Shown: positions 18,186 through 37,464, counted from the first letter of the stretch. The stretch: 63,630 nucleotides of DNA from Desulfovibrio sp. (GCA_014804965.1 JAAUYU010000025.1:17747-81376); one strand, 5' to 3'. A program made the numbers and translations. The notes: generated by a model from the sequence alone, not told the origin.

Positions 18186-18261
18186 GGGCAGTTAGCTCAG
18201 CTGGCAGAGCATCGCCCTTACAAGGCGAGGGCCACAGGTTCAAATCCTGTACTGCCCACCA
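18186..18261 (+). tRNA. tRNA-Val(TAC): tRNA-Val, anticodon TAC, CCA encoded
   Basis: Hand-folded 76-nt cloverleaf: acceptor GGGCAGT/ACTGCCC, D arm GCTC-AGCTGGCA-GAGC, anticodon arm TCGCC-CTTACAA-GGCGA, T arm ACAGG-TTCAAAT-CCTGT. Confidence 0.93.
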
Positions 18262-20328: not shown

Positions 20329-20330
20329 CG

Positions 20331-20846
20331 ATGATCAAAATCCTGAACATCCTAAGAAAGATAAACACCATCAGCGCCCTGGCAGGTGCCTCGCTCTATG
20401 CACTGATGACCGGCGTCTGCTTTCTGCAGGTGGTGATGCGGTACTTTTTTGAATCCGCACTCCAGTGGCCGGAGGAGTGCGCGCGATTCGCCTTCATCTG
20501 GCTTGCCTATCTGGCCTTCGCCATTTCCATGTTCACCAAGGCCCATTTGAGGGTGGACGCGCTGGTTATCCGCTTCCCGCTGCTGGCGCAGAGGATCATT
20601 GAAGCCATCAACATGCTCATAAGCGCGGTATTCTGCTTTTATATCGCGTGGCTTGCGCTGGAGATGATAGAGGTCGTGCGTGAATCCGAAATAACAGCCA
20701 TGACCATGCCCATTCCCCTGGCGCTTGTCTGGCTGTCGATTCCCGTGGGATTCACGCTGTCGGGGATATATGCCCTCTTTTATTCCGTCTGCCTTTTCTC
20801 CGGGCGCCTCACAGTGGAAGACAAGAATGAGGAAGTTCTCATATGA
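20331..20846 (+). CDS. dctQ: TRAP transporter small permease (DctQ family)
   Basis: 171-aa, 4-TM protein. Its stop overlaps the dctM start (ATGA at 20843). Confidence 0.85.
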   Translation: MIKILNILRKINTISALAGASLYALMTGVCFLQVVMRYFFESALQWPEECARFAFIWLAYLAFAISMFTKAHLRVDALVIRFPLLAQRIIEAINMLISAVFCFYIAWLALEMIEVVRESEITAMTMPIPLALVWLSIPVGFTLSGIYALFYSVCLFSGRLTVEDKNEEVLI

Positions 20847-22114
20847 GCAGCGTACTCGGTGTCTTGTTCCTCTCCCTGATCTGCCTGCTCCTGATGGGAG
20901 CGCCGGTGGCCATTGCTCTGGGCCTTTCCGCGCTTCTGGGCATGTATTTTGGCGAAATGTCGTTTATGCTGCTGATTCAGCGGCTCTACAACACCTTCGA
21001 TGCCTTCCCCCTGCTCGCGGTGCCTTTCTTTGTGCTGGCGGGCGACATAATGCAAAAAGGCACCATCGCCAATTCCCTGCTGGGCCTCTGCCGTACCCTT
21101 ATCGGACATGTGCGCGGCGGGCTGGGGCTCATCTCGGTCACCACATGCCTGTTTTATGGCGCCCTTTCCGGTTCCGCGCCGGCCACCACGGCGGCGGTGG
21201 GTGGCATAATGATCCCGGCCATGGACAAGGACGGGTATCCGCGCCTGTACGCCACGGCCCTGAATACCGCCGGGGGCTGCCTTGGCGTCATGATCCCACC
21301 AAGCGTGCCCCTGATCCTTTATGGTTCGACCGTTGGCTGCTCGATCTCGGATCTTTTCATTGCCGGCATAGTGCCAGGCATCCTCGTGGGCATATGTTTT
21401 ATGGTCATGGCCTATGTTTCCGCGTGCAGAAACCATTGGGGCACACGGCAGGCCAGGGCCAGCCTGTGGCAAAAACTCAAGGCGACCTGGGACGCGCGCT
21501 GGGCCCTGATGGTGCCTGTAATCGTCCTGGGCGGCATTTATGGCGGCATCCTCACGCCAACCGAAGCCGGTTGCGTGGCAGTGGTGTATTCGCTGTTCGT
21601 GGAGGCTTTCATAACCCGTTCCCTCACCTGGAAAAAGCTCTATGACATCTTTTTCGCCTCCATGCGCACAACCGGTGCCATATTTGCGATCATTGCCACA
21701 GCAAACGCCCTGAGCATAGTACTCGTCTACTACAATACCCAGGAAATTCTCTACAACATGATCATGGGGATCAGCTCGAGCCCCATCATCATTTTGCTGG
21801 TCATTTCCGCAATACTGCTGTTTTTGGGCACTTTTGTGGAAACTGCGGTCATTATCCTGGTCATGGCACCCATGCTTTTGCCCATCGCCACGGCAATAGA
21901 CATTACGCCCGTGCAATTTGGCATTTTCATGCTCGTCCTGCTGGCCACCGGATTTCTTACCCCGCCGGTCGGGGTCAATCTGTTTGTGGGTGCCAGTGTA
22001 GGTAATGTTTCGTTTTCAAAACTGAGCGCCCAATGCCTGCCGTTTTGTGGCGTAATGATCCTGGTGGGCCTGGCAATAGGGTTTTTCCCCAAAATGGTAA
22101 CCTTTCTTCTGTAA
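20843..22114 (+). CDS. dctM: TRAP transporter large permease (DctM family)
   Basis: 423-aa polytopic protein with the typical DctM N-terminus. Confidence 0.9.
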   Translation: MSSVLGVLFLSLICLLLMGAPVAIALGLSALLGMYFGEMSFMLLIQRLYNTFDAFPLLAVPFFVLAGDIMQKGTIANSLLGLCRTLIGHVRGGLGLISVTTCLFYGALSGSAPATTAAVGGIMIPAMDKDGYPRLYATALNTAGGCLGVMIPPSVPLILYGSTVGCSISDLFIAGIVPGILVGICFMVMAYVSACRNHWGTRQARASLWQKLKATWDARWALMVPVIVLGGIYGGILTPTEAGCVAVVYSLFVEAFITRSLTWKKLYDIFFASMRTTGAIFAIIATANALSIVLVYYNTQEILYNMIMGISSSPIIILLVISAILLFLGTFVETAVIILVMAPMLLPIATAIDITPVQFGIFMLVLLATGFLTPPVGVNLFVGASVGNVSFSKLSAQCLPFCGVMILVGLAIGFFPKMVTFLL

Positions 22115-22148: not shown

Positions 22149-23021
22149 ATGATGGTCATTGATTTCCGCATCCGCCCCCCCTACAAATCCTTCATGAGCA
22201 TGGGAATTGCCGGTGCCGGGCTGCCCAAGCTGGATTTCAAGAATGACGCATTCCCGGCCTGGCATGGACGCAAGCGCGTGGCTTCCTCCATGCCCGATGG
22301 CAGCATGGATAAATTCATGCTTGAGATGGATGTGGCAGGCATCGAGGTGGGCGTCCTGATGGGCCGCCGCACCGGCCATCCGGTCAATGGCGATGTGGAC
22401 AACAAGGACATCCAGGAGCTGATCAAAAAATACCCTGGCCGCTTTGTGGGTTTTGGCGGTATCAACCCGCATGAAAAAGACGCCGTGGACAGAGTCAAGG
22501 AATGCGCGGATCTGGGATTCAAAGGCATCGGCATTGATGCCGGCTGGTGCAATCCGGAAGTCTATGTGGACGACCCTAAATTGATGCCCGTGTATGAACA
22601 GGCCGCCAAACTCGGGCTTATTTCCTCCATTACCATGAGCGCGTTTTTGGGCAGCAATATCAATTTTTCCGATCCCACACGGCTGCAAAAAGTCGCCCAG
22701 GCCTTCCCCGAAATGCCCATTGTCGTGCCGCACGGCTGCTGGCCCTATGTCACCCAGGCTTTCGGCGTTGCCCTGATGTGCAATAATGTGCATCTCATGC
22801 CCGATACCTATCTGTATGTGCCCAACTTCCCGAATCGTAATGACTGGGTGGACGCGGCCAACTCGGGCTTCCTGCGCCACAAGCTCATTTTCTGCAGCTC
22901 GTATCCCATCCGCGACCTTTCCGAGTGCGTTGAAAACTGGCGTTCACTGCCGTTTGAGCGCGCGCCTCTGTATGACTCCCTCTATTACAATGCCGCCCGC
23001 CTTCTCAAGCTGACGGATTAA
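22149..23021 (+). CDS. Amidohydrolase_2-family metal-dependent hydrolase/decarboxylase (ACMSD/LigW/LigI-like)
   Basis: 290 aa. The N-terminal VIDFRIRPP strand and overall TIM-barrel amidohydrolase pattern. Substrate unknown. Confidence 0.7.
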   Translation: MMVIDFRIRPPYKSFMSMGIAGAGLPKLDFKNDAFPAWHGRKRVASSMPDGSMDKFMLEMDVAGIEVGVLMGRRTGHPVNGDVDNKDIQELIKKYPGRFVGFGGINPHEKDAVDRVKECADLGFKGIGIDAGWCNPEVYVDDPKLMPVYEQAAKLGLISSITMSAFLGSNINFSDPTRLQKVAQAFPEMPIVVPHGCWPYVTQAFGVALMCNNVHLMPDTYLYVPNFPNRNDWVDAANSGFLRHKLIFCSSYPIRDLSECVENWRSLPFERAPLYDSLYYNAARLLKLTD

Positions 23022-23164: not shown

Positions 23165-25087
23165 ATGTTCGAGCATATTTTCAAGCCTTTGACCATCCGG
23201 GGCAAGACCATAAAAAATCGCCTTGTGGTCCCGCCCATGGTTACTGATTTCTGTGATGCCGACGGCAAAGCCACCGAAAAATTCCTGGCCTACCATGAAG
23301 CGCGGGCCAAAGGCGGCTGGGGTCTGATCATTACCGAAGATTACGCCGTTGACCCCAGGGGCCGTGGCTTCAGCCATGTGGCCGGTTTATGGGACGACGG
23401 CCAGATCGAAAGCCACAGCGAATTGCCCAGGCGCGTCCATAAACACGGCGCGACCATTCTGGCGCAGATCTATCACTGCGGGCGCCAGACAAATCGTGCC
23501 GTTATCGGCGGAGTGCCGGTTGCGCCCACGGCCATTGCCTGCCCCTTTGGCACTGATGTGCCGCATGAGCTGACCGGCGCGGAAATCAGGCATCTTATCC
23601 AACAATATGCCGAAACCGCGGCGAGAGCCAAAAAATGCGGTTTTGACGGCGTGCAGATCCATGGGGCGCACGGCTATCTCATCTGCGAATTTCTCTCTCC
23701 GTATACCAATAAGCGCACGGATGAGTATGGCGGCAGTTTTATAAACCGGGCCCGCTTCGCGACGGATATCATTAAAGCCATTCGCGAAAAGTGTGGCGAC
23801 GATTTTATTATTGATATGCGGCTTTCCGGCAGCGAACGGGTGGAGGGCGGCCTGGAGCTGGAAGACATCAAGGCCCTTATGCCCTTGCTCGAAGATGCCG
23901 GTCTTGACATGGTCCACATCTCCGTGGGCAATTATCTTTCCGTGGACGACAATGTGGCCCCCGCCGAAGTGCCCCATGCCTGGATCACGGACTGGGCACA
24001 GGAAGTGAAAAAGGTCTGCAACATACCCGTGACCACTGTCTCCAGGATCAACGACCCTTTCATGGCGGAAAATATCTTACGGCAGAATAAGGCCGATTTT
24101 GTCGCCATGGGCAGACAATCCCTGGCCGACCCGGATACCCCGGAGAAAACACGCCAGGGAAATCTCAACGATATCCGCCACTGCATAGCCTGCAACGACG
24201 GGTGCATCGGCACTCTCTTCGGGGACCATGCCATCCGGTGTGTCATCAATCCCCAGCTGGGGCGTGAATACGAAGGCGGGCCGCAAAAAGCGGGAAAGCG
24301 GAAAAAAGTTGTGGTCATCGGGGCCGGCCCCGCTGGCCTTACGGCCGCTCTCACCGCTGCACAAAAGGGACACGACGTTACTGTTTACGAAAAAAGTTCC
24401 AGGCCGGGGGGCCAGTTCTATGTGGCGGCCATCCCGCCATGCAAGGGTGAGATTGCGGACTTTATAGGCTGGCAGGTCGCACAATGTAAAAATATGAACA
24501 TCCCCATTCATTACGATACAGAAGCTGACGCCAAAATGATCGGGGCGCTGAAGCCCGATATCGTCATCCTCGCGAGTGGAGGCGTCCCCGCTGTCCCTCC
24601 CATAGAGGGCATGGACACTCCCGGTGTCTGCACAGTGCCTGAGATCCTGCTGGGCAATATCATGCCCGGCAAAAATTGTGTTGTCATCGGCGGCGGCCAG
24701 GCCGGCATTGAAACTGCGCATTTCTTGGCGCAGATGATGCGCAATGTGACTGTCCTGGAATTTTTGGACACTATCGCTCCCGAGGAAGCCATCGGCCCCA
24801 GGATGAAAAGGCTGAAAATGCTTGCGGATCGGAACGTTAAGTTGTTTACTGGAATGAAGGTAACAAAGATAACAGCTGACTCGGTCATCGCCGTCGACAA
24901 GAAGGGGCAGGAGCACGCCTTCCCGGCCGACACGGTCGTGATCGCGACCGGCACCAAATCCTTTAACGGTCTTGAAAAAGACTTGAAAGACGCGGGTCTT
25001 GATGTGCGCACGATAGGCGATGCGCGGCGCGTAGGCAAAGTTCTCGATGCCACTACCCAGGGGTACGAAACCGCCGCAGCCATCTAA
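23165..25087 (+). CDS. OYE-type FMN oxidoreductase fused to an FAD/NAD(P)-binding domain (2,4-dienoyl-CoA reductase / 2-enoate reductase family)
   Basis: 640 aa. OYE N-terminus, Cys cluster HCIACNDGC, and Rossmann motifs VVVIGAGPAGL and VVIGGGQAGIE. Confidence 0.85.
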   Translation: MFEHIFKPLTIRGKTIKNRLVVPPMVTDFCDADGKATEKFLAYHEARAKGGWGLIITEDYAVDPRGRGFSHVAGLWDDGQIESHSELPRRVHKHGATILAQIYHCGRQTNRAVIGGVPVAPTAIACPFGTDVPHELTGAEIRHLIQQYAETAARAKKCGFDGVQIHGAHGYLICEFLSPYTNKRTDEYGGSFINRARFATDIIKAIREKCGDDFIIDMRLSGSERVEGGLELEDIKALMPLLEDAGLDMVHISVGNYLSVDDNVAPAEVPHAWITDWAQEVKKVCNIPVTTVSRINDPFMAENILRQNKADFVAMGRQSLADPDTPEKTRQGNLNDIRHCIACNDGCIGTLFGDHAIRCVINPQLGREYEGGPQKAGKRKKVVVIGAGPAGLTAALTAAQKGHDVTVYEKSSRPGGQFYVAAIPPCKGEIADFIGWQVAQCKNMNIPIHYDTEADAKMIGALKPDIVILASGGVPAVPPIEGMDTPGVCTVPEILLGNIMPGKNCVVIGGGQAGIETAHFLAQMMRNVTVLEFLDTIAPEEAIGPRMKRLKMLADRNVKLFTGMKVTKITADSVIAVDKKGQEHAFPADTVVIATGTKSFNGLEKDLKDAGLDVRTIGDARRVGKVLDATTQGYETAAAI

Positions 25088-25260: not shown

Positions 25261-26202
25261 ATGGATTACCGATTATTAGATTCCTTTCTGGTGCTTGCCG
25301 ATTTGCTTCATTTTGGACAAGCTGCAAAAAAGCTTAATATGTCTCAGCCTTGTCTGAGCAATCAAATCGCCCGACTTGAATCTGATTTGGGAGGAGCCCT
25401 CTTTGACCGGACAAAGACAAGAGTCCGTCTTACTGAGGCCGGCAGAATGCTTCAAGCGGAGGCAAAAAAACTGCGTGCTGATTCAGAGCGGCTGCGCTTT
25501 CGCCTGCAAAGCTTTTTTAAAAACGAAGAAGGAGTTCTCTCCCTAGGATATGGAGATGTGACAGAATTGAAAAGACTTTCGCGGGCAATCCTGAAAATGC
25601 ATGAACTTTACCCACGCATACGATTTCATCTTTGCGAGCTTGACCCGGGGGAAACTGTAGAACGCGTTCAAAACGGTTCCTTGGACGCCTCGGTCGTGAC
25701 CGGAACACCGAATGAAACTTTTCCTCCCGATCTGCAGCCAATCAAAATCATGGAAGGACGCCTGCGGGCCGCGCTGCCAGCCAATCATCCTCTGGCAAAG
25801 CAGGAAAAGCTCACTCTGGAAGACCTGCAGTCAGAGAAAATAATTGCCTGCACGCCTCGCCAGTCTGACGAAATGCAGGATATGGAACAGGTAAAATCGA
25901 GCTGGGTGCAGGAAAACCTCCTGAGCTCCTCGGACGTGATTCTCGACGTCAGGCGGCGCACAACTGCCTACTGGATGGTAAGTACCGGCCTTGGAGTAGC
26001 AATACTGCCGAACTGCTATGAGCTCATTCCCAGTGTGGACCCATCTCTTTCCTCTGCGGTAACAAATGTTGTGTTCAAGGACGTGGAAGGCCTTGATATA
26101 GCAAGCTGGACATGGTTTGTAACGCTGAAAAACCGCTCTGACTCTCTGATTTCGCGCCTGACAGAGTGTGTGCGCGACACTTTTGATCCCCATGAATTCT
26201 AA
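25261..26202 (+). CDS. LysR-family transcriptional regulator
   Basis: N-terminal HTH LLHFGQAAKKLNMSQPCLSNQIARLE plus a substrate-binding domain. GGAGGG RBS. Confidence 0.9.
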   Translation: MDYRLLDSFLVLADLLHFGQAAKKLNMSQPCLSNQIARLESDLGGALFDRTKTRVRLTEAGRMLQAEAKKLRADSERLRFRLQSFFKNEEGVLSLGYGDVTELKRLSRAILKMHELYPRIRFHLCELDPGETVERVQNGSLDASVVTGTPNETFPPDLQPIKIMEGRLRAALPANHPLAKQEKLTLEDLQSEKIIACTPRQSDEMQDMEQVKSSWVQENLLSSSDVILDVRRRTTAYWMVSTGLGVAILPNCYELIPSVDPSLSSAVTNVVFKDVEGLDIASWTWFVTLKNRSDSLISRLTECVRDTFDPHEF

Positions 26203-26685: not shown

Positions 26686-27207
26686 ATGCAAGAAATCCGC
26701 ATTGACGTGACACGCCAGACAGAGGAAGAGCTCGCGCTTGCGAGGCGCCACGCGCAGCTGGTGTTCCGGTTCAATCACACCATGCCGGAAACACCGGAAT
26801 ACACTACCCTGATGCGTGAGATTTTTCCCACCATGGGCGAAGGGAGCGTGGTCTTTGCGCCGCTCACGGCCATCAGGCCGCACATGGTGCAGATCGGGAA
26901 GAATGTCGTGGTCATGAACGGCTGCCTGATGATGGCGGCCGGTGGCATCTTCATCGGCGACAACGCCATGCTGGCGGCCAATGTGCAGCTGTTAAGCAAC
27001 AATCATGACCTTGTGGAGCGGCAGGTCATCACCTGCAAGCCCGTCCATATCGGGGCGCGGGCCTGGATCGGCGCGGGAGCCACCCTTCTCGCGGGGGTCA
27101 CCATCGGGGAAAATGCGGTCGTGGGCGCGGCCAGCGTGGTCACGCATGATGTGGAGCCGGACACCATTGTGGCCGGAAACCCCGCGCGTTTTATTCGCAA
27201 GGTGTAG
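26686..27207 (+). CDS. Sugar O-acetyltransferase (maltose/galactoside acetyltransferase family)
   Basis: Mac-like N-terminus followed by hexapeptide repeats IGARAWIGAGATLLAGVTIGENAVVGAASVV and GNPARFIRK. Confidence 0.8.
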   Translation: MQEIRIDVTRQTEEELALARRHAQLVFRFNHTMPETPEYTTLMREIFPTMGEGSVVFAPLTAIRPHMVQIGKNVVVMNGCLMMAAGGIFIGDNAMLAANVQLLSNNHDLVERQVITCKPVHIGARAWIGAGATLLAGVTIGENAVVGAASVVTHDVEPDTIVAGNPARFIRKV

Positions 27208-27242: not shown

Positions 27243-28148
27243 TCAGCTCGGCTCCGGCGCGGCATCCCTGGCATAATCCTCGTTCAGCAATTCCATCATC
27301 TTCCGTGCCGGACGGGAGAGCCAGATGTCCTTCAGGGTCACAATGGCGGGGGTGAGCGGGTCGGCCAGTTCAAAAATGTATCTCTGCGCGAGCCGCCTTT
27401 TCCTTTCCGTCTCGCATTGGGGGATGATGGCAACCGCTGCCAGGCTTTCCAGCATTTCCAGCAGCACGAAGGAATCCTGGCTGAAGCAGATTATCCGCGG
27501 CTCCAGGCCATGCAGTTGCAGGGCATGGCTGATGATGTTGTAAATGCCGCCGCCGTTCCACCGGCGCGGGATCATGAGCGGCCAGCGGCACACCTCGGCC
27601 AGGTGCATCTCGCTTTCGGCCGGGGGCGGCAAAAGCGGCGAGAACACAGCCTCGAGCCGCTGGGGCTGGAGTGGCGTGATGTTGAATTCCTTGCCGGCCA
27701 GCGGCAGATACAGCACGGCGAGCTCAATCAGCCGCTGCCGGACGAGCCATGCAAGCCGCTCGCTGTCGGCAAAGAGGGCCTGACAGGCCACATGGGGAAA
27801 CTCCGCGGCGACCTTGGGCAGGAGCCGCTGAAACATGGCGACGCAACTGGTGGAAAAGCCGATGCGCACATTCCCCTTTATCTCGTCGTCACGCTCCACG
27901 ATCCTGTGCGCAAGGCCCTTCATCTTGGCGAGGATGGCCCGGCCTTCCTCATAAAGCCTTGTGCCCGCCTCGGTGACTATCCAGTTTTTGCCCTGGCGAA
28001 AAATCAGCGTGCAGCCCAGGTCATTCTCAAGCTCTTTCAGGGCCATGGACAGCGGTGGCTGCGAAAGGCCCAGCCTGCGGGCGGCCTTGTGGATGCCGCC
28101 CTCCTCGACCATGGCGCAAAAATACTGGATTTTCTGAAGACTTATCAT
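27243..28148 (-). CDS. LysR-family transcriptional regulator
   Basis: HTH IQYFCAMVEEGGIHKAARRLGLSQPPLSMALKELE. ATG 28148 is preferred; the track ORF starts 12 codons earlier at 28184. Divergent from the TRAP operon. Confidence 0.85.
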   Translation of the reverse strand: MISLQKIQYFCAMVEEGGIHKAARRLGLSQPPLSMALKELENDLGCTLIFRQGKNWIVTEAGTRLYEEGRAILAKMKGLAHRIVERDDEIKGNVRIGFSTSCVAMFQRLLPKVAAEFPHVACQALFADSERLAWLVRQRLIELAVLYLPLAGKEFNITPLQPQRLEAVFSPLLPPPAESEMHLAEVCRWPLMIPRRWNGGGIYNIISHALQLHGLEPRIICFSQDSFVLLEMLESLAAVAIIPQCETERKRRLAQRYIFELADPLTPAIVTLKDIWLSRPARKMMELLNEDYARDAAPEPS

Positions 28149-28510
28149 ACGCGGCCCAATCCCGTTTGAAAGCAAGGGTATCATGCCCGGGCGGTCCGGT
28201 AAACCGGGTTATGGGCGTGCCCTCGGCTGCTGCGCCACCGCGCCCGGCACGGCCGCCACACGCTTCTGCTCCGTCGCCGCGCGGGGCCCCGCGATGCGCT
28301 CGTCCTCGGCCAATCTTGATATGATTGACCTATGGAGCCGATATAAATTTCGTGAACGGTTGTCTGGACCATTTTTTTCTTGTAGGGTAGCGGTTAATTT
28401 CATCCATCCGAAACTGAGAGCCGGGTGCCGATGATTTTGTGGGGGGCCTGATTTTGTCCTGTGCAACCACCTGCCTCTGGTTGTTCACCTTTTAAACAGA
28501 GAGGGGACCC

Positions 28511-29503
28511 ATGCTTTCCAAAAAACTTTTCCGCACGCTGGCCCTGGGGGCCATCCTTTCGGGCTTTGTGCTGGCTCCGGCGGCGGGCCAGGCCGAGACC
28601 GTGCTCAAGCTCGGGCACACCGGCGCGCCTGACCATCACTACCAGATCGCCTCGCAGATGTTCGCGGACAATGTGAAAAACCGCACCAACGGGGAGATCG
28701 TCATCCAGATCTTCCCCTCGGATACGCTCGGCAAGCAGAAGCAGCTCGTCTCCCAGGCGCAGCTCGGCCAGACCGACATGGTGCTGACCTCCGACGCCGT
28801 GATTTCCTCCTTCGTGCCGATTTTCGGCGTGCTGAACCTGCCCTTCATCTTTGAGGACATCGACCATGTGGGCAACGCCATGGACGGCGAAGTGGGCGCC
28901 ATCCTCACGCAGGAAGCGGGCAAGAAGGGCCTGGAAGTGCTCGGCTACTGGGAAAACGGCTTCCGCCACATCACCAACAACAAGCGCCCCATCAACAAGC
29001 CCGACGACCTGAAGGGTGTCAAGCTGCGCACCCCCGAATCCAAGCTGGTCATGGATTCCTTCAAGGCGCTCGGCGCCTCCCCCACGCCCATGAGCTTCGG
29101 CGACATCTATTCCGCCCTTCAGCTCGGCACGGTGGACGGCCAGGAGAACCCCATCGCCCACCTCATGAAGCAGAAGTGGTACGAAGTGCAGAAGTACCTC
29201 TCGCTCACCGGCCACCAGCACTATGTGGAGCCCCTGCTCATGAGCAAGGAGAAGTTCGACGCCCTGACGCCTGAGCAGCAGAAGATCCTCAAGGAAGAGG
29301 CCCAGAAGATCGCCGTCGAGATCCGCAAGCTCGCCACCCAGGACGAGGCCAGCCAGCTTGAGGAAGTGAAGAAGTACATGGAAGTGAACGACGTGAAGGA
29401 CAAGAAGCCCTTCATGGACGCTGTGCAGCCCGTGTACGAAAGCACCAAGAAGCAGTTCGGCAACGAAATCTTCGACAAGATCGACGCTGCCCGCAAGAAG
29501 TAA
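28511..29503 (+). CDS. dctP: TRAP transporter substrate-binding protein (DctP family)
   Basis: Signal peptide ending AAGQA-E; 330-aa DctP-like protein. Confidence 0.9.
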   Translation: MLSKKLFRTLALGAILSGFVLAPAAGQAETVLKLGHTGAPDHHYQIASQMFADNVKNRTNGEIVIQIFPSDTLGKQKQLVSQAQLGQTDMVLTSDAVISSFVPIFGVLNLPFIFEDIDHVGNAMDGEVGAILTQEAGKKGLEVLGYWENGFRHITNNKRPINKPDDLKGVKLRTPESKLVMDSFKALGASPTPMSFGDIYSALQLGTVDGQENPIAHLMKQKWYEVQKYLSLTGHQHYVEPLLMSKEKFDALTPEQQKILKEEAQKIAVEIRKLATQDEASQLEEVKKYMEVNDVKDKKPFMDAVQPVYESTKKQFGNEIFDKIDAARKK

Positions 29504-29632
29504 GCAAAGCGCCGGTGCCCCAATCGTGAACGGATCGCCCGGAGAGGTGTCCCCCACCTTTCCGGGCGGTCCACGGGGCGCGGAAACAGGACAAAGGCCA
29601 GGATTCAGCGGTCCCGGACCAAAGGGAAGCCC

Positions 29633-30154
29633 ATGGAACTGCTACGAAAGTTCAATTCAGGAATCAATCGCGTCCTCTGCGTGGGGATGGTCGTCTGCTT
29701 CATTTGCATGGTCATCCTCATCTTTCTCCAGGTCATTTGCAGGTATGCGCTCGATGACGCCCTGTCCTGGTCGGAGGAGCTCGCGAGCTACTTCTTCCAC
29801 TGGGCGACCTTCCTCGGCGCCAGCGTCGCCTTTTATGAAAACACCCATATTTCCGTGACCTATTTCGTCGACCGTGTGCCGTCGGTCCGGCTGCGGGCCT
29901 TCCTGCTGCTCATCGCGGACTGCTGCTGCCTGTGGTTTTTGGGCATGTATATCGTGGACGGCTTCAACGTGTGCCGCCTGGTCTTCAAGTTCGGTGAGAC
30001 AGCGGCTTCCATGACCTGGCTGCCCATGGGCTTTGTGCAGCTTGCCATTCCGCTGGCGAGCGTTTTCATGGCCCTGAATGTGCTGGCGTATCTCATCGGG
30101 CACGTCCGTTGCCTGGTCACCGGCGAAACTGGCGAAGCCGTCGCCGCAGTATAA
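29633..30154 (+). CDS. dctQ: TRAP transporter small permease (DctQ family)
   Basis: 173-aa, 4-TM protein lying between the P and M subunits. Confidence 0.85.
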   Translation: MELLRKFNSGINRVLCVGMVVCFICMVILIFLQVICRYALDDALSWSEELASYFFHWATFLGASVAFYENTHISVTYFVDRVPSVRLRAFLLLIADCCCLWFLGMYIVDGFNVCRLVFKFGETAASMTWLPMGFVQLAIPLASVFMALNVLAYLIGHVRCLVTGETGEAVAAV

Positions 30155-30166
30155 GGGGTTTCGGAG

Positions 30167-31438
30167 ATGCTGGCCTTTGTCCTTTTCGGCGTATTCTTTG
30201 TCCTGCTGCTCCTCAGCGTTCCCATTTCCATTGCGCTCGGCTTTTCGTCCATGGTCGCCATCATGTTCTGCACCACGGATTCCGTGGGCGTGCTCATCCA
30301 GAACTCCTTTGCCAACGGCTTTTCCCTGATGGCGATCCCCTTCTTCATTCTGGCCGGCAACATCATGGCGCGGGGCGGCGTTTCCCAGCGACTCGTCAAC
30401 CTCGCCAACTGCGGTTTCGGCCGTTACCTGGGCGGCCTCGCCCATGTGGCAACGGCGGCCTGCACCTTTTTCGGCGCCATTTCCGGCTCCGCCCCGGCCA
30501 CCACGGCGGCCATCGGCGGCGTCATGGTGGAGCCGATGACGGAAAAAGGCTACTCCAAGGCCTTTTCCGGCGCCTGCGTGGCGGCCTCGGGAATGATCGG
30601 CCTGCTTATCCCGCCGAGCATCATCATGATCATCTATGGCGTGCTCACGGGGACGTCCGTCGCCAAGCTCTTTATCGGCGGCGTCATCCCCGGCCTGCTC
30701 ACCGCAGCCGCCTACATGGTGTGCAACCATTTCATCGCCAAGAAGCTGAAATGCCCGCGCGGCGACAGGCCCGCCCCCGGCGAGACCTGGAAATGCACCA
30801 AGGAGGCCATCTGGGCCATCCTCATGCCGCTCATCATCCTCGGCGGCATTTACGGCGGCATCTTCACCCCCACGGAAAGCGCGGTGGTGGCCGTGGTCTA
30901 CGGCATCATCGTGGGCTTCTGGATACACCGCTCGCTCACGGTGAAGGACCTCTACAACGTATTTCTCGCCACCGCCAAAAGCTCGGCCATCATCCTCTTC
31001 CTCATCGCCACGGCCCATTGCTTCAGCTTTGTGCTCGCGAGCGGCCATATCCCGCAGACGCTCGCCATCGCCATCCGTTCCATTTCCCAGAACCCCACCT
31101 TGGTGCTCTTCCTCATCTGCTTCTGCCTGCTCATCGTGGGGACCTTCCTGGACAATGCCGTGGCCGTGGTGCTGATGACGCCCATTTTCTTCCCCGTGGT
31201 GCAGAGCCTCGGCATCGACCCCATCTTCTTCGGCGTGCTCACGGTGTTCACGCTGGCCATCGGGCAAATCACCCCGCCCGTGGGCCTGTGCCTGTTCGTG
31301 GCCTGCAACCTCGCCAAGCTCAAGCTGGAAGAGATCGTGGTTTATTGCGTGCCCTACATTATCGCGGCGCTGGTGCTCATGTGCCTCTTCGTCTTTTTCC
31401 CGCAGATCATTCTCGTGCTGCCGGACATGATGAACTAG
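30167..31438 (+). CDS. dctM: TRAP transporter large permease (DctM family)
   Basis: 423-aa polytopic protein, clearly paralogous to 20843..22114. Confidence 0.9.
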   Translation: MLAFVLFGVFFVLLLLSVPISIALGFSSMVAIMFCTTDSVGVLIQNSFANGFSLMAIPFFILAGNIMARGGVSQRLVNLANCGFGRYLGGLAHVATAACTFFGAISGSAPATTAAIGGVMVEPMTEKGYSKAFSGACVAASGMIGLLIPPSIIMIIYGVLTGTSVAKLFIGGVIPGLLTAAAYMVCNHFIAKKLKCPRGDRPAPGETWKCTKEAIWAILMPLIILGGIYGGIFTPTESAVVAVVYGIIVGFWIHRSLTVKDLYNVFLATAKSSAIILFLIATAHCFSFVLASGHIPQTLAIAIRSISQNPTLVLFLICFCLLIVGTFLDNAVAVVLMTPIFFPVVQSLGIDPIFFGVLTVFTLAIGQITPPVGLCLFVACNLAKLKLEEIVVYCVPYIIAALVLMCLFVFFPQIILVLPDMMN

Positions 31439-31480
31439 AGGCCGCTGCTGCCCTTTTTGCGACGGCCCACCAATGCAACA

Positions 31481-31508
31481 GACCCGCTCACATGGAGCGG
31501 GTCTTTTG
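31481..31508 (+). terminator. Rho-independent terminator after dctM
   Basis: GACCCGCTC (31481-31489), loop ACATG, GAGCGGGTC (31495-31503), then TTTTG. Confidence 0.65.
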
Positions 31509-31566
31509 CATTTCTGAAGCCGGAACTCCCCGGCGGGAAGGCTATCCCTTCACCAGCCGCAAGTGC

Positions 31567-32823
31567 CTATTTCCGCACCGGCAGGGTCAGGGAGCCCTGC
31601 GGCAGGATGGCGACGCTGGCGCTGGGCCCGTATACTTTCAGGGCCTCGTCAAAGGCTTCCTGCACATTTTCCGCCTTGGAGCAAAAGAGCAGCTCGGTCG
31701 TCGGGCGCGACAGGGAGGAAATCAGGCGCACCTTGCGGCTTGAGGCCACTTTTGCAATGGCATAGGCCTTGTGGCCGCCCAGTTCAAAATTCCCCTTGAA
31801 TTGGCGCATCAGTTCCTCGGGGGCCAGCTTTTTGTCCAGCCACTTCTCAAACACCTTTTCCCCGAGGCCGTCCCTGCACTCGCCGATCCAGATGATGGTG
31901 CCCCCCGGCCGCGTGATGGCCTCGGCGTGGTCCAGCGCCTTCTGGGCCTGGTACACGTTCACATCTCTGGGATAGCCGCTGGCCGCAGCGATGCAGATGT
32001 CCACCTGCTCCTCAAAGGGAATCTCGTACATTTTCGCCGACACGTCCACGGCGGCGTACCAGGCCTGCACCAGGTCGCCCGCGCCCACGAATACGATTTG
32101 GCGCTGTTCATTGGTGACGGTGTTGATGATAAAGTCCACGCCCACCTTTTGCGCCACTTCGATCATTTCGAGGCTGATGGGATTTTGCCGGATGGGCGGC
32201 AGCGCGTCCAGAAGCTCGACCATGCGCGCATGGTTGCTGCGCACGGTGTCATGGGCCGCGAGACCGGGCAGGATGGATTTGCGGCCGCCCGAAAAGCCCG
32301 CGAAATAATGCGGCATCACCACGCCGATGGTGATGAGGAAATCACAATCCACGGCCAGCCTGTTGATCTTACAGTCATAGCCGCTGCTGGTCCTGCCGAG
32401 GTCCACGCAGGAGGCCGCGTCGGTAGACACATGATTGATGAAACGGAAGCGCCGGGTCATTTCGGGGCCATAAAGGCGGCTGTTCAGCTCCTCCGACTGG
32501 GGCTCGTGGATGCCCGTTGCAATCACGAATGTCACCTGCTCATCCCTGATGCCTGCTTCCTCAAACACCTTGAGCAGCGGCGGAAAGATGGCCTCATATG
32601 GCGTTGGCCTGGTCTCGTCATTGACGACCACGGTGACGCTGCGCGGCTTTTTTTCGCGCAGCCGCGAAAGCAGGGAGGCGCTCCCGATGGGCTTTTCCAG
32701 CGCCCCGGCCACGGCCGCCACCGGGTCCGCGAGGCCGGGCATGTCCCGTGGCAGCAGGGTCACGGCGCGCATCCCCTCCGGGAGCGTGAACGGAACGGTG
32801 CCGGTGCCGTACGCAAATTCCAT
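31567..32823 (-). CDS. LarA-family (nickel-pincer dependent) alpha-hydroxy-acid racemase/epimerase homolog
   Basis: PHYFAGFSGGRKSILPG motif (cofactor-tethering Lys region) and a DUF2088-type N-terminus. Start is ambiguous among ATG 32823, 32835 and 32847. The longer track ORF to 32970 runs into AT-rich promoter-like DNA. Confidence 0.8.
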   Translation of the reverse strand: MEFAYGTGTVPFTLPEGMRAVTLLPRDMPGLADPVAAVAGALEKPIGSASLLSRLREKKPRSVTVVVNDETRPTPYEAIFPPLLKVFEEAGIRDEQVTFVIATGIHEPQSEELNSRLYGPEMTRRFRFINHVSTDAASCVDLGRTSSGYDCKINRLAVDCDFLITIGVVMPHYFAGFSGGRKSILPGLAAHDTVRSNHARMVELLDALPPIRQNPISLEMIEVAQKVGVDFIINTVTNEQRQIVFVGAGDLVQAWYAAVDVSAKMYEIPFEEQVDICIAAASGYPRDVNVYQAQKALDHAEAITRPGGTIIWIGECRDGLGEKVFEKWLDKKLAPEELMRQFKGNFELGGHKAYAIAKVASSRKVRLISSLSRPTTELLFCSKAENVQEAFDEALKVYGPSASVAILPQGSLTLPVRK

Positions 32824-33184
32824 GGTTCTCCCCATTTCTTCCTCCATTGTCCTGCCCCGGATTTTTCGTCGCAAGGGGCGCACTGCATAAAGAAGGACAA
32901 ATAAACCTGCTATAAAAATTATATTATTTACAGAGAATAAACTCAGGCGTAGCGTTGCAAGGTAAAACATCTTCAGGTGGCCGGGGTGTCGGGGCTGGAG
33001 TCAAAGAGCCCACGGTGGCGCGGATTTCCTCGCCTTGTTCCCGACCCTGGCACACACCTTTTCAACACAACATACAGCCCGAAAGACGTTAAACTATCCG
33101 GGCGCCTTTGGCAAATGAGCGGCAGATGCTTCAGGAACGGCATCGCGCATCACCTGTTCACGAACCCTTCAGAGGAGATGGAAG

Positions 33185-34381
33185 ATGGCCAGCAAAGGAC
33201 TTCTTGACGGCATCCGCGTCCTGGACCTCAGCCGCGTGCTCGCGGGCCCCTACTGCGGCATGATGCTGGGCGACATGGGCGCGGACGTGATAAAGATCGA
33301 GGTGCCCGGCAAGGGTGACGACGCCCGCATCAATTATCCCATCATCAACGGCGAAAGCGCCTATTTCATGAATCTCAACCGCAACAAGCGGGGCATCACG
33401 CTCAATCTCAAGTCCGAAAAGGGCAAGGAGATCTTCAAGAAGCTGGTGGCGAAAAGCGACATCGTGCTCGAAAATTACCGCCCCGGCGTCATGGAAAAGC
33501 TCGGCCTCGGCTATGAGGACCTGAAAAAGATCAATCCGGCCATCATTTACGGCTCGGTTTCCGGTTTCGGCCACTTCGGCCCCTACAGCCAGCGGCCGGG
33601 CTATGACATCATCGGCCAGGCCATGAGCGGCCTCATGAGCACCACAGGCTGGCCGGGCGGCCAGCCCACCCGCGTGGGCACGGCCATTTCCGATGTCATG
33701 GGCGGCATCAGCTGCTGCGTGGGCATCCTCGCCGCCTACATCAACCGCCTCAAGACCGGCAAGGGAGAAAAGGTGGACGTGGCCCTGGTGGACAGCATGG
33801 TCTCCTCGCTGGAAATCATCAATACGCTCTATCTGGTTTCCGGAAAGATACCGCAACGCATCGGCAACCGCTACGAGGCCATTTACCCGTATGACTCCTT
33901 CCAGGCCAAGGACGGGATGCTCGTCATCGGCGCCGGGAACCAGAAACTCTTTACCATCCTCTGCGATGTGATGGGGAAAAAGGAGCTTCTGGACGATCCG
34001 TTGTTCAAGGACAACAATCTCCGCGTCATCAACCACGAAAAGCTCAAGCCCTACATCGAGGACTGGCTCAAGGACAAGACCATCGACGAAACGGTGGACA
34101 TCCTGCTGGCGGCCGGGGTGCCCGCCGCGCCCATCAACACCATCGACCGCGTTGCCAAGGACCCGCATATCGCCGGGGCGCGCGAAATGTTTGTGGAAAT
34201 CGAGCACCCCGTGGCCGGGAAATTCAAAATCACCGGCAACCAGATCAAGCTCACCGAGCACAAGATCGACACCTTCTCCCCGGCGCCCCTGCTCGGCCAG
34301 CACAACCATGAGGTGCTGAAAGAGCTGGCGGACCTGAGCGATGAGGATATCGACCGTCTGCAGGAGGAAAAGGTCCTCTAG
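33185..34381 (+). CDS. Family III CoA-transferase (CaiB/BaiF/Frc family)
   Basis: N-terminal GIRVLDLSRVLAGPYCGMMLGDMGADVIKIE is canonical for the family. GAGGAG RBS. Confidence 0.9.
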   Translation: MASKGLLDGIRVLDLSRVLAGPYCGMMLGDMGADVIKIEVPGKGDDARINYPIINGESAYFMNLNRNKRGITLNLKSEKGKEIFKKLVAKSDIVLENYRPGVMEKLGLGYEDLKKINPAIIYGSVSGFGHFGPYSQRPGYDIIGQAMSGLMSTTGWPGGQPTRVGTAISDVMGGISCCVGILAAYINRLKTGKGEKVDVALVDSMVSSLEIINTLYLVSGKIPQRIGNRYEAIYPYDSFQAKDGMLVIGAGNQKLFTILCDVMGKKELLDDPLFKDNNLRVINHEKLKPYIEDWLKDKTIDETVDILLAAGVPAAPINTIDRVAKDPHIAGAREMFVEIEHPVAGKFKITGNQIKLTEHKIDTFSPAPLLGQHNHEVLKELADLSDEDIDRLQEEKVL

Positions 34382-34502
34382 CGCCCGCGCGCACCGGCTC
34401 CCTGTGGCGGAGCCGGCGCGCCGCGAAAGGAGGCCCGCGAGGACGCGCAGGCGCGCTGCCCCAGGCAAAGTTCACAGAATTTCGCAAACCGTGGAGCACA
34501 CC

Positions 34503-35393
34503 ATGGGCCGAAAAATCGAAATAGTGGAAGTGGGACCCAGAGACGGCTTTCAAAACCTCTGCGACTACATTCCCGCAGAGGAAAAGCTGCGTTTTATTGA
34601 CGGGCTTGCCGATGCGGGCATCACGCACATCCAGGTCACGTCCTTTGTCAGCCCCAAGGCCATCCCCCAGATGAAGGACGCCACGGAAGTGGCGAAGGAG
34701 GCGCTGGCCCGCCACCCCGGCCTGGATTTTTTCGCCCTCGTGCCCAATCTCAGGGGCGCGCAGGCCGCAAAAGACGCGGGGCTCAAGAAAGTGAGCAACG
34801 TCATTTCCCTTTCCGAGTCCCACAACAAGGCCAATATCCGCAAGACCCACGAGGAATCTTTTGCGGAGCTGGACAAGATACTGGAGACGCTGCCCGAGCT
34901 CGAGGTCAGCATCGACGTGGCGACGGCCTTCGGCTGCCCCTTTGAAGGCAAGTTCCCCACGGAAAAGCTGCTCTCCTTCCTCGACGTGCTGTATAAAAAG
35001 GGCATCCGCGAGTTCACCCTGTGTGACACCACGGGCATGGCCAACCCCGCGCAGGTGCGGGAGGTGGTCACAAAAGTGAAGGAAGCCTTCCCGGACGCCG
35101 TTTTTGAAGCCCATATCCACGACACCCGCAACATGGGCATGGTCAATACGCTGGCGGCCATCGAGGCAGGCATCGACAAGGTGCAGTCCACCCTGGGCGG
35201 CCTCGGCGGTTGCCCTTTCGCCCCCGGCGCCTCAGGCAACACCTCCACGGAAGACCTCGTGAACATGCTCAATGAAATGGGCTATGAAACCGGGGTGGAT
35301 GTGGAAAAACTCGTCTCCCTGGCGCGGGAGGAAAAAGCGAAGATCCCGGGCATCTACAGCGGGCACCTGCTCAATATGCCCGTTACCGTGTAG
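34503..35393 (+). CDS. HMG-CoA lyase-like (HMGL-family) acyl-CoA lyase
   Basis: IEIVEVGPRDGFQN motif. DRE-TIM fold family. ATG 34503 lies inside track ORF 34341..35393. Confidence 0.85.
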   Translation: MGRKIEIVEVGPRDGFQNLCDYIPAEEKLRFIDGLADAGITHIQVTSFVSPKAIPQMKDATEVAKEALARHPGLDFFALVPNLRGAQAAKDAGLKKVSNVISLSESHNKANIRKTHEESFAELDKILETLPELEVSIDVATAFGCPFEGKFPTEKLLSFLDVLYKKGIREFTLCDTTGMANPAQVREVVTKVKEAFPDAVFEAHIHDTRNMGMVNTLAAIEAGIDKVQSTLGGLGGCPFAPGASGNTSTEDLVNMLNEMGYETGVDVEKLVSLAREEKAKIPGIYSGHLLNMPVTV

Positions 35394-35545
35394 GCGGGGA
35401 GGAGCGGCCGGACGCCCCCGGCGGCACTTATACGCGTCCCATGCTCCCGACTGGTCCTGCCCCTGTTCCGTCACGGGCAGGACCAGTTTTTTCCCGTCAC
35501 GGCACACCCAGGCCTTGACCGGACCACAAACAAGGAAGCGGCGAA

Positions 35546-36391
35546 ATGGCTTGCGGCAAAACCTGGCTCATCACCGGCACATCCTCCGGCCTCGGCAAAT
35601 GGCTGGCCACAGAGGCCCTGCGGCAGGGGGAGAACGTCATCCTCACTGCACGGAACCCCGCCGATATTGCGGCCCTGGCAGCCCTCTATCCCCAAACGGC
35701 GCTGGCCGCACGGCTGGATGTGACGGATGAGGCCGGCATAGCGGCCGCGGTCGCGGCTGGGCTCGCGAAATTCGGCCGCATCGACGTGCTGGTGAACAAT
35801 GCCGGCTATGCCCTGCGTGGCGCAGCCGAGGAGTGTTCCCTCGAGGAGGTCAGGCGGGAATTCGATGTGGACTTCTTCGGCCCGGTGCGCTGCATCCAGG
35901 CCGTGCTCCCGCATATGCGTGAGTTCCGGAGCGGCCTTATCATCAATTATTCCTCCATTGCGGCGCTCTCCTACACGGCGGGCTCGCCCTTTTATTCGGC
36001 GGCCAAAAGCGCCCTTGAGGCCTTTTCGGATTCCATGCGGCTGGAGGTGGAACCGCTGGGCATAAAGGTGATGGTGGTGGAGCCGGGCCCCTTCCATACC
36101 AATTTTCACGACCGCTCCATCAGCATCACGCCCACAAATATCGCCGACTACGCCCCGACGGCGCACAAGCGCAAGGTGCGCCTCGCCAATCCCGAGAGCG
36201 CCGGAACCGGCTTCGGAGACCCGCAAAAGGCGGCTCTCGTCGTCCTCAAGGCCGCATCCGAGGCCACACCGCCCCGGCATCTGGTGCTGGGCTCCCATGC
36301 CTGGCAGCGGGCCGAAGCCGCCCTGAAACAGCGCCTCAAGGAGCTGGAGGACTGGAAAAGGCTGAGCGTGCAAAGCGACAAGGAGGGATAA
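35546..36391 (+). CDS. SDR-family oxidoreductase
   Basis: ITGTSSGLG cofactor motif and YSAAKSA (YxxxK). Confidence 0.85.
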   Translation: MACGKTWLITGTSSGLGKWLATEALRQGENVILTARNPADIAALAALYPQTALAARLDVTDEAGIAAAVAAGLAKFGRIDVLVNNAGYALRGAAEECSLEEVRREFDVDFFGPVRCIQAVLPHMREFRSGLIINYSSIAALSYTAGSPFYSAAKSALEAFSDSMRLEVEPLGIKVMVVEPGPFHTNFHDRSISITPTNIADYAPTAHKRKVRLANPESAGTGFGDPQKAALVVLKAASEATPPRHLVLGSHAWQRAEAALKQRLKELEDWKRLSVQSDKEG

Positions 36392-36660: not shown

Positions 36661-37464
36661 ATGCTCGACTTCATTCACCAGTCCCCGGCGCTCGCCGGGC
36701 TCTGCGCCGGGCTCGTCACCTGGCTCTTCACCACCCTGGGCGCGGCGGCCATTTTCCTCAACCGGGAATTTTCCCGCCGGACGCTGGACATCCTCCTCGG
36801 TTTCGCAGGCGGCGTGATGCTGGCGGCGAGCATGTGGTCGCTGCTCGCCCCGGCGCTTGAACTGGCGCAGGCCGCCTGGGGCACATGGAAGTTCGTGCCC
36901 CCGGCGGCCGGGTTGCTGCTGGGCGCGCTCATCTTGCGGCTGCTCGACTTCGCGACGCCCCATTTCCACCTGATGCTCGGGCGCCCCGACGGCCCCGAAA
37001 GCCGGCTCCCGCGCAGCTTCCTCCTCGTCTTTGCCATCACGCTGCACAATATTCCCGAGGCGCTGGCCGTGGGCGTGGCCTTCGGCGCGGCGGCCATCGA
37101 CCCGGCCCTGGGCGTGGCCGGGGCCTTCACCCTCATGTTCGGCATCGGGATGCAGAACATCCCCGAGGGCATGGCCGTTTCTCTGCCGCTTTTGCGCGAG
37201 GGCATGGACCGCCGCAAGGCCTTCTTGATCGGCCAGCTTTCCGGCGCGGTGGAGCCCGTGGCCGCCCTCGCCGGGGCGCTGCTCACCTCGCTCGCCCTGC
37301 CGCTGCTTCCCTGGGCGCTCGGTTTCGCGGCCGGGGCCATGATCTTCGTCACCGTGGAGGAGGTCATCCCCGAGGCCCACGCCTCGGGCAATGGCGACGC
37401 CGCCACCATGGGGCTCATCGTGGGCTTTGTGGCCATGATGTGCCTGGATGTGCTCTTCAGCTGA
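36661..37464 (+). CDS. ZIP-family divalent metal transporter (ZupT/GufA-like)
   Basis: 267-aa, about 8-TM protein. HNIPEALAVG and QNIPEGMAVS signature helices. Confidence 0.85.
   Translation: MLDFIHQSPALAGLCAGLVTWLFTTLGAAAIFLNREFSRRTLDILLGFAGGVMLAASMWSLLAPALELAQAAWGTWKFVPPAAGLLLGALILRLLDFATPHFHLMLGRPDGPESRLPRSFLLVFAITLHNIPEALAVGVAFGAAAIDPALGVAGAFTLMFGIGMQNIPEGMAVSLPLLREGMDRRKAFLIGQLSGAVEPVAALAGALLTSLALPLLPWALGFAAGAMIFVTVEEVIPEAHASGNGDAATMGLIVGFVAMMCLDVLFS

Follow-up and report, generated by a model that had tools for sequence, protein, structure and literature searches.

In a 63,630-nucleotide stretch of DNA from Desulfovibrio sp. (GCA_014804965.1, JAAUYU010000025.1:17747-81376; hereafter the window), eight genes at positions 27243-36391 probably make up a single pathway, so far undescribed, for an acid resembling malate. 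They encode a LysR-family regulator, a tripartite ATP-independent periplasmic (TRAP) transporter, a homolog of LarA, a family III coenzyme A (CoA) transferase of the CaiB type, a lyase resembling 3-hydroxy-3-methylglutaryl-CoA lyase (HMGL) and a short-chain dehydrogenase/reductase (SDR). A sequential wiring, in which a malate-type 2-hydroxy-dicarboxylate would be racemized, activated and cleaved to give glyoxylate, is the reading we favor, tentatively and as something short of an even bet. The novelty lies in known enzyme families newly combined in a narrow clade. All eight genes, including each family named in the original prediction, were confirmed by an open reading frame (ORF) listing and by profile scans:

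27243-28184, minus strand: LysR-family regulator, divergent from dctP; Pfam HTH_1 and LysR_substrate, no NCBIfam equivalog cut-off reached
28511-29503, plus strand: TRAP solute-binding protein, DctP family; Pfam DctP 296.6 bits, TIGR00787
29633-30154, plus strand: TRAP small permease DctQ; Pfam DctQ
30167-31438, plus strand: TRAP large permease DctM; Pfam DctM 375.9 bits, TIGR00786
31567-32823, minus strand: LarA homolog of 418 aa, like the malate racemases (MAR, LarAH6); NF052593 493.6 bits, nearest solved relative Mar2 (6D6Z)
33185-34381, plus strand: family III (CaiB/BaiF) CoA-transferase; Pfam CoA_transf_3 440 bits
34503-35393, plus strand: HMGL-like acyl-CoA lyase of 296 aa, with Gln replacing the DRE-TIM Glu; PRK05692 290 bits, cut-off 246
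35546-36391, plus strand: classical SDR of the PRK06180 type, an optional accessory; Pfam adh_short, NF004824 299 bits

Recurrence of the gene set

The neighborhood of larA was surveyed at 80 genome loci (LarA at most 58% identical), 80 metagenome loci (47-62%) and about 30 loci from the family. The combination LysR-TRAP-LarA-CaiB-HMGL recurs in five metagenome contigs whose LarA proteins are 69-89% identical to that of the window. Three of these are complete: L132 (89%), which includes the SDR; L133 (79%), with a major facilitator superfamily (MFS) gene at the SDR place; and L134 (75%), in which the order is lysR, larA, dctMQP, caiB, hmgL and nothing occupies the SDR place. The remaining two are cut by contig ends, L295 (80%) within caiB and L136 (69%) just past larA, the latter with a ThrE-family gene at the SDR place. 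The SDR is therefore optional, being found in the window and L132 and absent from L133, L134 and L136, and its earlier assignment as a pathway member was not borne out. Orthologs of the regulator are 70-84% identical in L132, L133, L134 and L295, and related copies of the module are present in animal-gut metagenomes.

At least four chromosomal contexts are represented (IleRS/LspA; sigma-70/DnaG and UvrC/PanC; Lon/PrmC; ThrE/glycosyltransferases); L133 and L295 share one site, and the other loci differ in their flanks. Across the copies, CaiB is 99, 97, 92, 91 and 88% identical to that of the window, and the identity ranks agree for LarA, CaiB, HMGL, DctM and LysR, as would be expected had all the genes been inherited or transferred together. 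The module lies 6-8 GC points under its flanks in the window and in L132, and equals host GC in hosts of lower GC; judged by this drop relative to the flanks, it is horizontally acquired in this Desulfovibrio. The co-occurrence of the genes is beyond chance, as the set recurs in other contigs. Co-conservation, which the original prediction had set beforehand as its refuting test, was thus found: the set is kept in a gut Desulfovibrionaceae clade in different contexts and through one rearrangement.

Within the genus, LarA of the MAR type (55-66% identical) occurs in 7 of 40 genomes. None of the 40 carries the LarA-CaiB module, and one of them holds a CaiB ortholog, at a separate locus. At family level, where each gene was found in 11 of 200 genomes, 7 genomes have both a LarA ortholog and an HMGL homolog; these genomes are mutually non-independent and keep the two at separate loci. 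The link between LarA and CaiB-HMGL is real but narrow.

Two further arrangements bear on this link. In a sister module, found in a genome of the same genus (G205; locus L305, G205:C17:1-16000) and on contigs L137/L138 and L297, the same TRAP transporter (DctP 86%, DctM 87% identical), LysR and a convergent LarA (66-67%) are accompanied by a 289-aa gene of the phosphoenolpyruvate (PEP) mutase/isocitrate lyase (ICL) family, which follows dctM in lieu of CaiB-HMGL. An AEC-family transporter gene and a dehydrogenase gene of the 3-hydroxyisobutyrate dehydrogenase (HIBADH) type are divergent from larA. The PEP-mutase-family protein scores below both the PrpB and the carboxy-PEP mutase cut-offs; its superfamily includes C2-C3 lyases of (2R)-hydroxy acids (isocitrate, dimethylmalate), as well as mutases and decarboxylases. 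Replacement of CaiB-HMGL by such a gene, beside the same LarA and TRAP, makes a C-C lyase family the recurring partner. As a separate observation, contigs that are 77-78% identical in their remaining genes share the PEP-mutase-family gene at 99-100% identity.

In the other arrangement, the genome G028 (L180, G028:C13:22000-41900) brings distant paralogs of LarA (35% identical), CaiB (36%) and HMGL (41%) together within 5.6 kb, among genes for a DASS transporter, two IclR regulators, two aconitase-family proteins and two PrpD-family proteins. The best model for this LarA paralog is again MAR (399 bits), and the HMGL is of the Glu type. This trio is a third, independent case.

More widely, LeuCD-like two-subunit hydro-lyases adjoin LarA of the MAR type at 23 of the 80 metagenome loci and in several genomes. 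Maleate hydratase, whose product is D-malate, is an enzyme of this two-subunit LeuCD-like type. L217 and about 16 similar human-gut contigs (L213-L233) carry DctPQM, an asparaginase-family gene (227 bits, under the type II cut-off) and a MAR-type LarA gene in the same direction, and resemble the group of 61%-identical Mailhella LarA; the arrangement suggests import of an amide of malate, such as 2-hydroxysuccinamate. On another contig, L239 (Ga0101944_10000350), a MAR-type LarA (55%) was seen between two LeuCD-like pairs together with a bona fide 2-isopropylmalate synthase in a leucine-type operon. The published table of LarA contexts gives malic enzyme as the neighbor of LarA group 6 (15%) and links COG1804 to no LarA group, unlike the module in the window with its CoA-transferase.

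The enzymes, the binding protein and their nearest relatives

The sequence supports assignment of the LarA homolog as a putative racemase of the malate (dicarboxylate) type. Both domains are present (PF09861, Lar_N, 201.5 bits; PF21113, LarA_C, 69.2 bits), and among NCBIfam models the protein matches NF052593 (LarAH6 malate racemase) best, falling 6.4 bits short of the cut-off of 500. The Desulfovibrionaceae orthologs tested all fall under the same cut-off (476-494 bits), and an Acetomicrobium relative scores 576. The nearest named relatives come from Mailhella and Desulfovibrio. Residues H106, H172, K182, R72 and H198 correspond to H108, H174, K184, R75 and H200 of LarA, namely the catalytic His pair, the Lys tethering the nickel-pincer nucleotide (NPN) and the NPN-binding Arg and His, and they are invariant in 16 orthologs. 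Q294-K295 is also kept. H351-K352, within an invariant GGHKAY segment of the ortholog alignment, fits the published MAR signature, in which His or Gln and then Lys stand at the LarA positions W358/T359 (PMC11770544). Past the second catalytic His, the loop reads Y-F against Y-K in Mar2, at two positions described as variable (PMC11770544).

Mar2/LarAH6 of Thermoanaerobacterium thermosaccharolyticum (6D6Z; Desguin et al., 2020, PMC7583248; Urdiain-Arraiza et al., 2024, PMC11770544) shares with the window protein its fold and domains, the catalytic His pair, the NPN-tethering Lys, the Q-K of helix 11 and the H-K pair. The genome scanned (2.54 Mb in 39 contigs, 93% complete) also holds the cofactor genes, all above cut-off: contig 9 carries larB (245 bits) next to larC (125 bits), and contig 39 carries larE (177 bits). 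No second LarA was found in this genome, so that the copy in the window is the only one and the enzyme that the cofactor genes serve.

For the CoA-transferase, the CoA_transf_3 match spans residues 7-374, the whole length. None of the cut-offs for characterized specificities is reached (succinate-glutarate, 348 of 750; YfdE, 343 of 522; mesaconate, 334 of 700), and the nearest solved relative is human SUGCT (9BR6).

The nearest solved relatives of the lyase are the HMG-CoA lyases 6NDS, 1YDO and 2CW6. It keeps the Arg-Asp pair, the H-x-H and Asn metal ligands and the catalytic Cys loop, with R13/D14, H204/H206, C237 and N246 aligned to R41/D42, H233/H235, C266 and N275 of human HMGCL. Glu72 of the human enzyme is the invariant Glu of the DRE-TIM triad; here the aligned residue is Q44, in the segment IQVTSF, against IETTSF (2CW6), IEITSF (1YDO) and IEAGSF (6NDS). 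The Gln is common to the module orthologs and to the nearest orthologs in genomes of the family, and all other Desulfovibrionaceae paralogs carry Glu. Among the 150 nearest 50%-cluster representatives, 26 have Gln, and ten cluster look-ups of Gln-type lyases returned the name 'hydroxymethylglutaryl-CoA lyase' or none. The exchange of Gln for Glu may define a lyase subfamily with another substrate class.

The genomic contexts of Gln-type lyases vary. In L166 (G020:C48) and L167 (G016:C4), the genes for Crp, CaiB, LeuC-like and LeuD-like proteins, HMGL, two PrpD-family proteins, DcuC and PrpF lie together, and this cluster holds the closest CaiB/HMGL orthologs (75% and 60-62% identical). Taken by itself, the cluster resembles a pathway not yet described, for a di- or tricarboxylate with a double bond or a hydroxyl group (aconitate, itaconate or citraconate type). 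Other contexts comprise three PrpD genes with CaiB, an acyl-CoA dehydrogenase and an enoyl-CoA hydratase; an ADP-forming CoA ligase with an enoyl-CoA hydratase, a tautomerase and an RraA-like gene; and a GntR regulator with a TRAP transporter. These contexts would suit malyl-, citramalyl- or citryl-CoA-like substrates, which bear a carboxylate on the carbinol carbon.

Among described systems, several resemble the CoA branch in part. Chloroflexus aurantiacus is said, from work of Friedmann et al. dated 2006/2007, to possess a succinyl-CoA:(R)-citramalate CoA-transferase and an (R)-citramalyl-CoA lyase (EC 2.8.3.20 and 4.1.3.46), and the transferase reportedly also accepts D-malate. This pair is alike at family level, a family III transferase standing beside a lyase of the HMGL fold by which an (R)-2-hydroxy-dicarboxylyl-CoA is split; the system differs in having neither racemase nor importer and in reportedly belonging to an autotrophic cycle. 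Human HMGCL (2CW6, 3MP3) and B. subtilis YngG (1YDO), considered together with SUGCT (9BR6), show the R-D pair, H-x-H, Cys loop and Asn of the window lyase. Unlike HMGCL and YngG, the latter has Gln for the triad Glu, a genome in which no acetoacetate metabolism was found and no leucine-catabolic context. The L-malyl-CoA/beta-methylmalyl-CoA lyase Mcl and the succinyl-CoA:(S)-malate CoA-transferase SmtAB follow the same logic, in which CoA is transferred to malate, and glyoxylate and acetyl-CoA are then released. Mcl, however, has an HpcH/CitE-like fold rather than that of HMGL and uses the (S) form, so that a racemase is unnecessary.

The genes dctP, dctQ and dctM are consecutive, as in a TRAP transporter. 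The AlphaFold2 (AF2) model of DctP has a mean confidence (pLDDT) of 87, and a combined sequence and structure search gave 4PDD as the nearest solved relative (41% identical, Z 41.7); identity to canonical C4-dicarboxylate DctPs is just 24-26%. 4PDD and 4PDH may bind D-erythronate, and 4PAK may bind (R)-pantoate; these assignments were given no weight as evidence.

Proposed route and competing wirings

In the sequential reading, the TRAP system would import the 2-hydroxy-dicarboxylate, the module being mobile, under LysR control and devoted to one substrate pool. The nickel-pincer LarA homolog would interchange (S) and (R) configuration at C2, the family III CoA-transferase would form the thioester of the (R) form, and the Gln-type HMGL-fold lyase would split it by a retro-Claisen reaction into acetyl-CoA (or another acyl-CoA) and glyoxylate. 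Variable downstream reductase and exporter genes would then remove the glyoxylate. Observed are the identities of the genes, their catalytic residues, the cofactor genes elsewhere in the genome and the joint inheritance of the set. From there we infer that the acid is D/L-malate or a 3-substituted malate, that the CoA branch prefers the (R) form, that the enzymes act in this order and that glyoxylate is released.

The chemistry sets clear limits. LarA acts by hydride abstraction from C2 (PMC7583248), and it therefore requires a secondary alcohol, which excludes citramalate, citrate and 3-hydroxy-3-methylglutarate (HMG). The citramalate logic of Chloroflexus, which the original prediction had combined with a LarA step, consequently fails for LarA acting on citramalate, which carries no hydrogen on its alpha carbon that could leave as hydride. 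Should LarA and the lyase share one skeleton, in which C2 bears H, OH and COOH, cleavage between C2 and C3 must yield glyoxylate.

Several observations weigh against a sequential route. At about 190 remoter loci (LarA at most 62% identical), neither CaiB nor HMGL was found near LarA, which makes the association a recent, narrow invention, and two contigs with closer LarA proteins (71% and 68%) lack CaiB and HMGL. LarA with TRAP and CaiB-HMGL with TRAP each occur alone, so that neither enzyme set needs the other. The closest CaiB/HMGL orthologs sit with LeuCD-like, PrpD and PrpF genes, a context that hints at tertiary alcohols (citramalate, citrate) rather than LarA substrates, and the two conserved promoter elements of the module, described below, have no common motif. 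In metabolic terms, malic enzyme is present and already serves L-malate, a search of the genome for two glyoxylate sinks gave neither a malate synthase nor a glyoxylate carboligase above cut-off, and the transferase and lyase together yield no net thioester. Cleavage of malate would thus be energetically useful only with glyoxylate as an electron sink, or in reverse. Genes for a reductase or an exporter follow the lyase gene in both module types (SDR, MFS or ThrE; HIBADH and AEC), and lend weak support to reduction of glyoxylate and its export as glycolate. The earlier claim of one pathway holds in part: a functional link is supported, with co-inheritance and the MAR-type LarA speaking for it; the genes are not one operon, since larA lies on the opposite strand, and parallel branches fit about as well as the proposed order of steps.

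Such parallel branches, which we consider somewhat unlikely, would share one importer and one regulator: LarA would convert D-malate to L-malate for malic enzyme, and CaiB and the lyase would process another acid on which LarA cannot act, for instance (R)-citramalate (to pyruvate and acetyl-CoA) or citrate (to oxaloacetate and acetyl-CoA). As the two units occur singly, this wiring fits about as well as the sequential order. It is also in keeping with the Crp-CaiB-LeuC/D-like-HMGL-PrpD-PrpD-DcuC-PrpF clusters of the closest orthologs, typical of citramalate- or aconitate-type acids, with the other Gln-type lyases behind enoyl-CoA hydratases and PrpD genes, and with the energy that pyruvate or oxaloacetate would give in this genome, where no sink for glyoxylate was found. 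The Chloroflexus transferase and lyase for (R)-citramalate reportedly belong to the same two families. Parallel branches leave unexplained why LarA stays with the lyase genes through transfers and a rearrangement, why a second C-C lyase family stands beside the same LarA and TRAP in the sister module and why the trio arose independently in G028, and they demand a single solute-binding protein that accepts two acids. Another reading takes them as two unrelated units, LysR-TRAP-LarA for D-malate and CaiB-HMGL for some other purpose, that became neighbors once and were then co-inherited or transferred. Restriction of the association to one clade (LarA at least 69% identical), four transcription units with no common operator motif and the existence of each unit alone elsewhere would agree with such an accident; persistence of the set at no fewer than four chromosomal sites and through one reordering of its genes, the other lyase family at the equivalent place in the sister module and the paralogous trio make it improbable.

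A route running in reverse would join glyoxylate and acetyl-CoA to (R)-malyl-CoA, pass the CoA to acetate or succinate and have LarA turn D-malate into L-malate, from which malic enzyme and pyruvate oxidation would draw energy. LarA would then be indispensable to an (R)-specific lyase, the frequent placement of MAR-type LarA beside LeuCD-like hydro-lyases would be matched, and, with malic enzyme present and neither malate synthase nor glyoxylate carboligase found, the module could be the sole glyoxylate route. We give this a low probability: the module has no gene forming glycolate or glyoxylate, none of the nearest solved relatives of the binding protein is known to bind 2-oxo acids, no place is given to the reductase and exporter genes, and an HMGL-type lyase would have to work backwards. 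Lastly, CaiB and HMGL might be a succinyl-CoA:HMG CoA-transferase and an HMG-CoA lyase for free HMG, with LarA irrelevant. The nearest solved structures (9BR6; 6NDS, 1YDO and 2CW6) and a lyase score above the NCBIfam cut-off for the HMG-CoA lyase subfamily point this way. Against it stand Gln at the invariant Glu72 position, the lack of leucine-pathway neighbors at the locus and a search of the 93%-complete genome that gave no match for thiolase (PF00108) or for family I or acetoacetate CoA-transferase (PF01144), so that acetoacetate from HMG would be stranded. HMG thus appears an unlikely substrate of the lyase, and this explanation as a whole is highly improbable; action on HMG alone, which the original prediction had named as refuting its proposal, is accordingly disfavored.

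Beyond the sequential reading lies a broader proposal, which we regard as doubtful: the Gln-type enzyme would be an (R)-malyl-CoA lyase that, with transferase and racemase, links L-malate to glyoxylate and acetyl-CoA in strict anaerobes, in either direction. The racemases would thereby gain a physiological role, and Gln would mark lyases for acyl-CoAs with a carboxylate on the carbinol carbon. Neither D-malyl-CoA nor (R)-malyl-CoA was found as a term in the literature searched, so that, if the CoA branch does use (R)-malyl-CoA, both the thioester intermediate and the pathway would be absent from that literature. In that case, the module would also bear on the use of dietary organic acids by gut sulfate reducers; malic acid is widely added to food and feed as the racemate. 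Under parallel wiring, the locus would be an ordinary catabolic island.

The in vivo role of LarA-type malate racemases is an open question (PMC7583248). Three testable contexts are offered here: the CoA-lyase module, the PEP-mutase/ICL sister module and the LeuCD-like neighbors. The idea they share is that racemases may connect L-malate with an acid of D configuration that a neighboring enzyme produces or consumes.

Transcription units, spacer elements and genomic setting

With larA on the minus strand, convergent with dctM and divergent from caiB, the set comprises at least four transcription units: lysR; dctPQM; larA; and caiB-hmgL(-sdr). The larA ORF extends over 31567-32970 (467 aa). Its likeliest start is the ATG at 32823, which has GGAG 5 nt upstream and gives 418 aa; the profile matches begin at residue 50. 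For the lyase, the likeliest start is 34503 (MGRKIEIVEVGPRDG; 296 aa) rather than 34341. Three elements were noted in the spacers:

28315-28362, no strand assigned: candidate LysR operator and dctP promoter in the lysR-dctP spacer; CTTGATAT ... GATATAAATTT ... TGAA ... TTG
31480-31504, no strand assigned: terminator-like hairpin in the convergent dctM/larA spacer; a 10-pair stem with 7 GC pairs, then a T-rich tail
32886-32932, plus strand: promoter-like element 5' of caiB in the larA-caiB divergent spacer; CATAAAGA(T/A)(T/G)GACAAATAA-N6-TATAAAA(A/T)TTATATTATTTACA

The first element is kept in five loci (the window, L132, L133, L134 and L137) whose spacers are otherwise unlike, and may serve as LysR operator and dctP promoter. 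The element upstream of caiB is likewise kept in five loci and moves with caiB in the rearranged locus L134. It holds a near-palindrome, TATAA-N3-TTATA, and both elements are AT-rich. A strict scan for sigma-70 promoters gave no call in the region, not even at the 32886-32932 element. Each spacer keeps an element of its own, and a search for a shared operator that compared the lysR-dctP with the larA-caiB spacers over five loci gave no common k-mer of 7-9.

The module belongs to a larger block of low GC. Directly after a tRNA-Val gene (18186-18261), GC falls from about 0.68-0.69 to about 0.52-0.54; across the module it is about 0.61, with flanks of 0.67-0.69, and it returns to 0.67 past 36.4 kb. 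The same block contains a second cassette, made up of a TRAP DctPQM transporter (19330-22114), an amidohydrolase_2 gene (22149-23021), a 640-aa reductase of the old yellow enzyme (OYE)/FAD type (23165-25087) and a LysR regulator (25261-26202). A hexapeptide-repeat protein is encoded at 26686-27207, after this second LysR. The borders of the insertion are defined by GC content and the tRNA alone; in the nearest same-genus genome, G204, contigs break at both flanks, and remoter genomes are non-syntenic on the ZupT side. Contigs of a single RNA library (X20), which may hold DNA, match every gene at about 90-95% identity; these matches were not taken as evidence of expression. Elsewhere, at G000:C4:108325-109067, a second ZupT-like sequence matches window positions 36661-37464 at 75-78% identity in two overlapping pieces, and may be a frameshifted or split copy.

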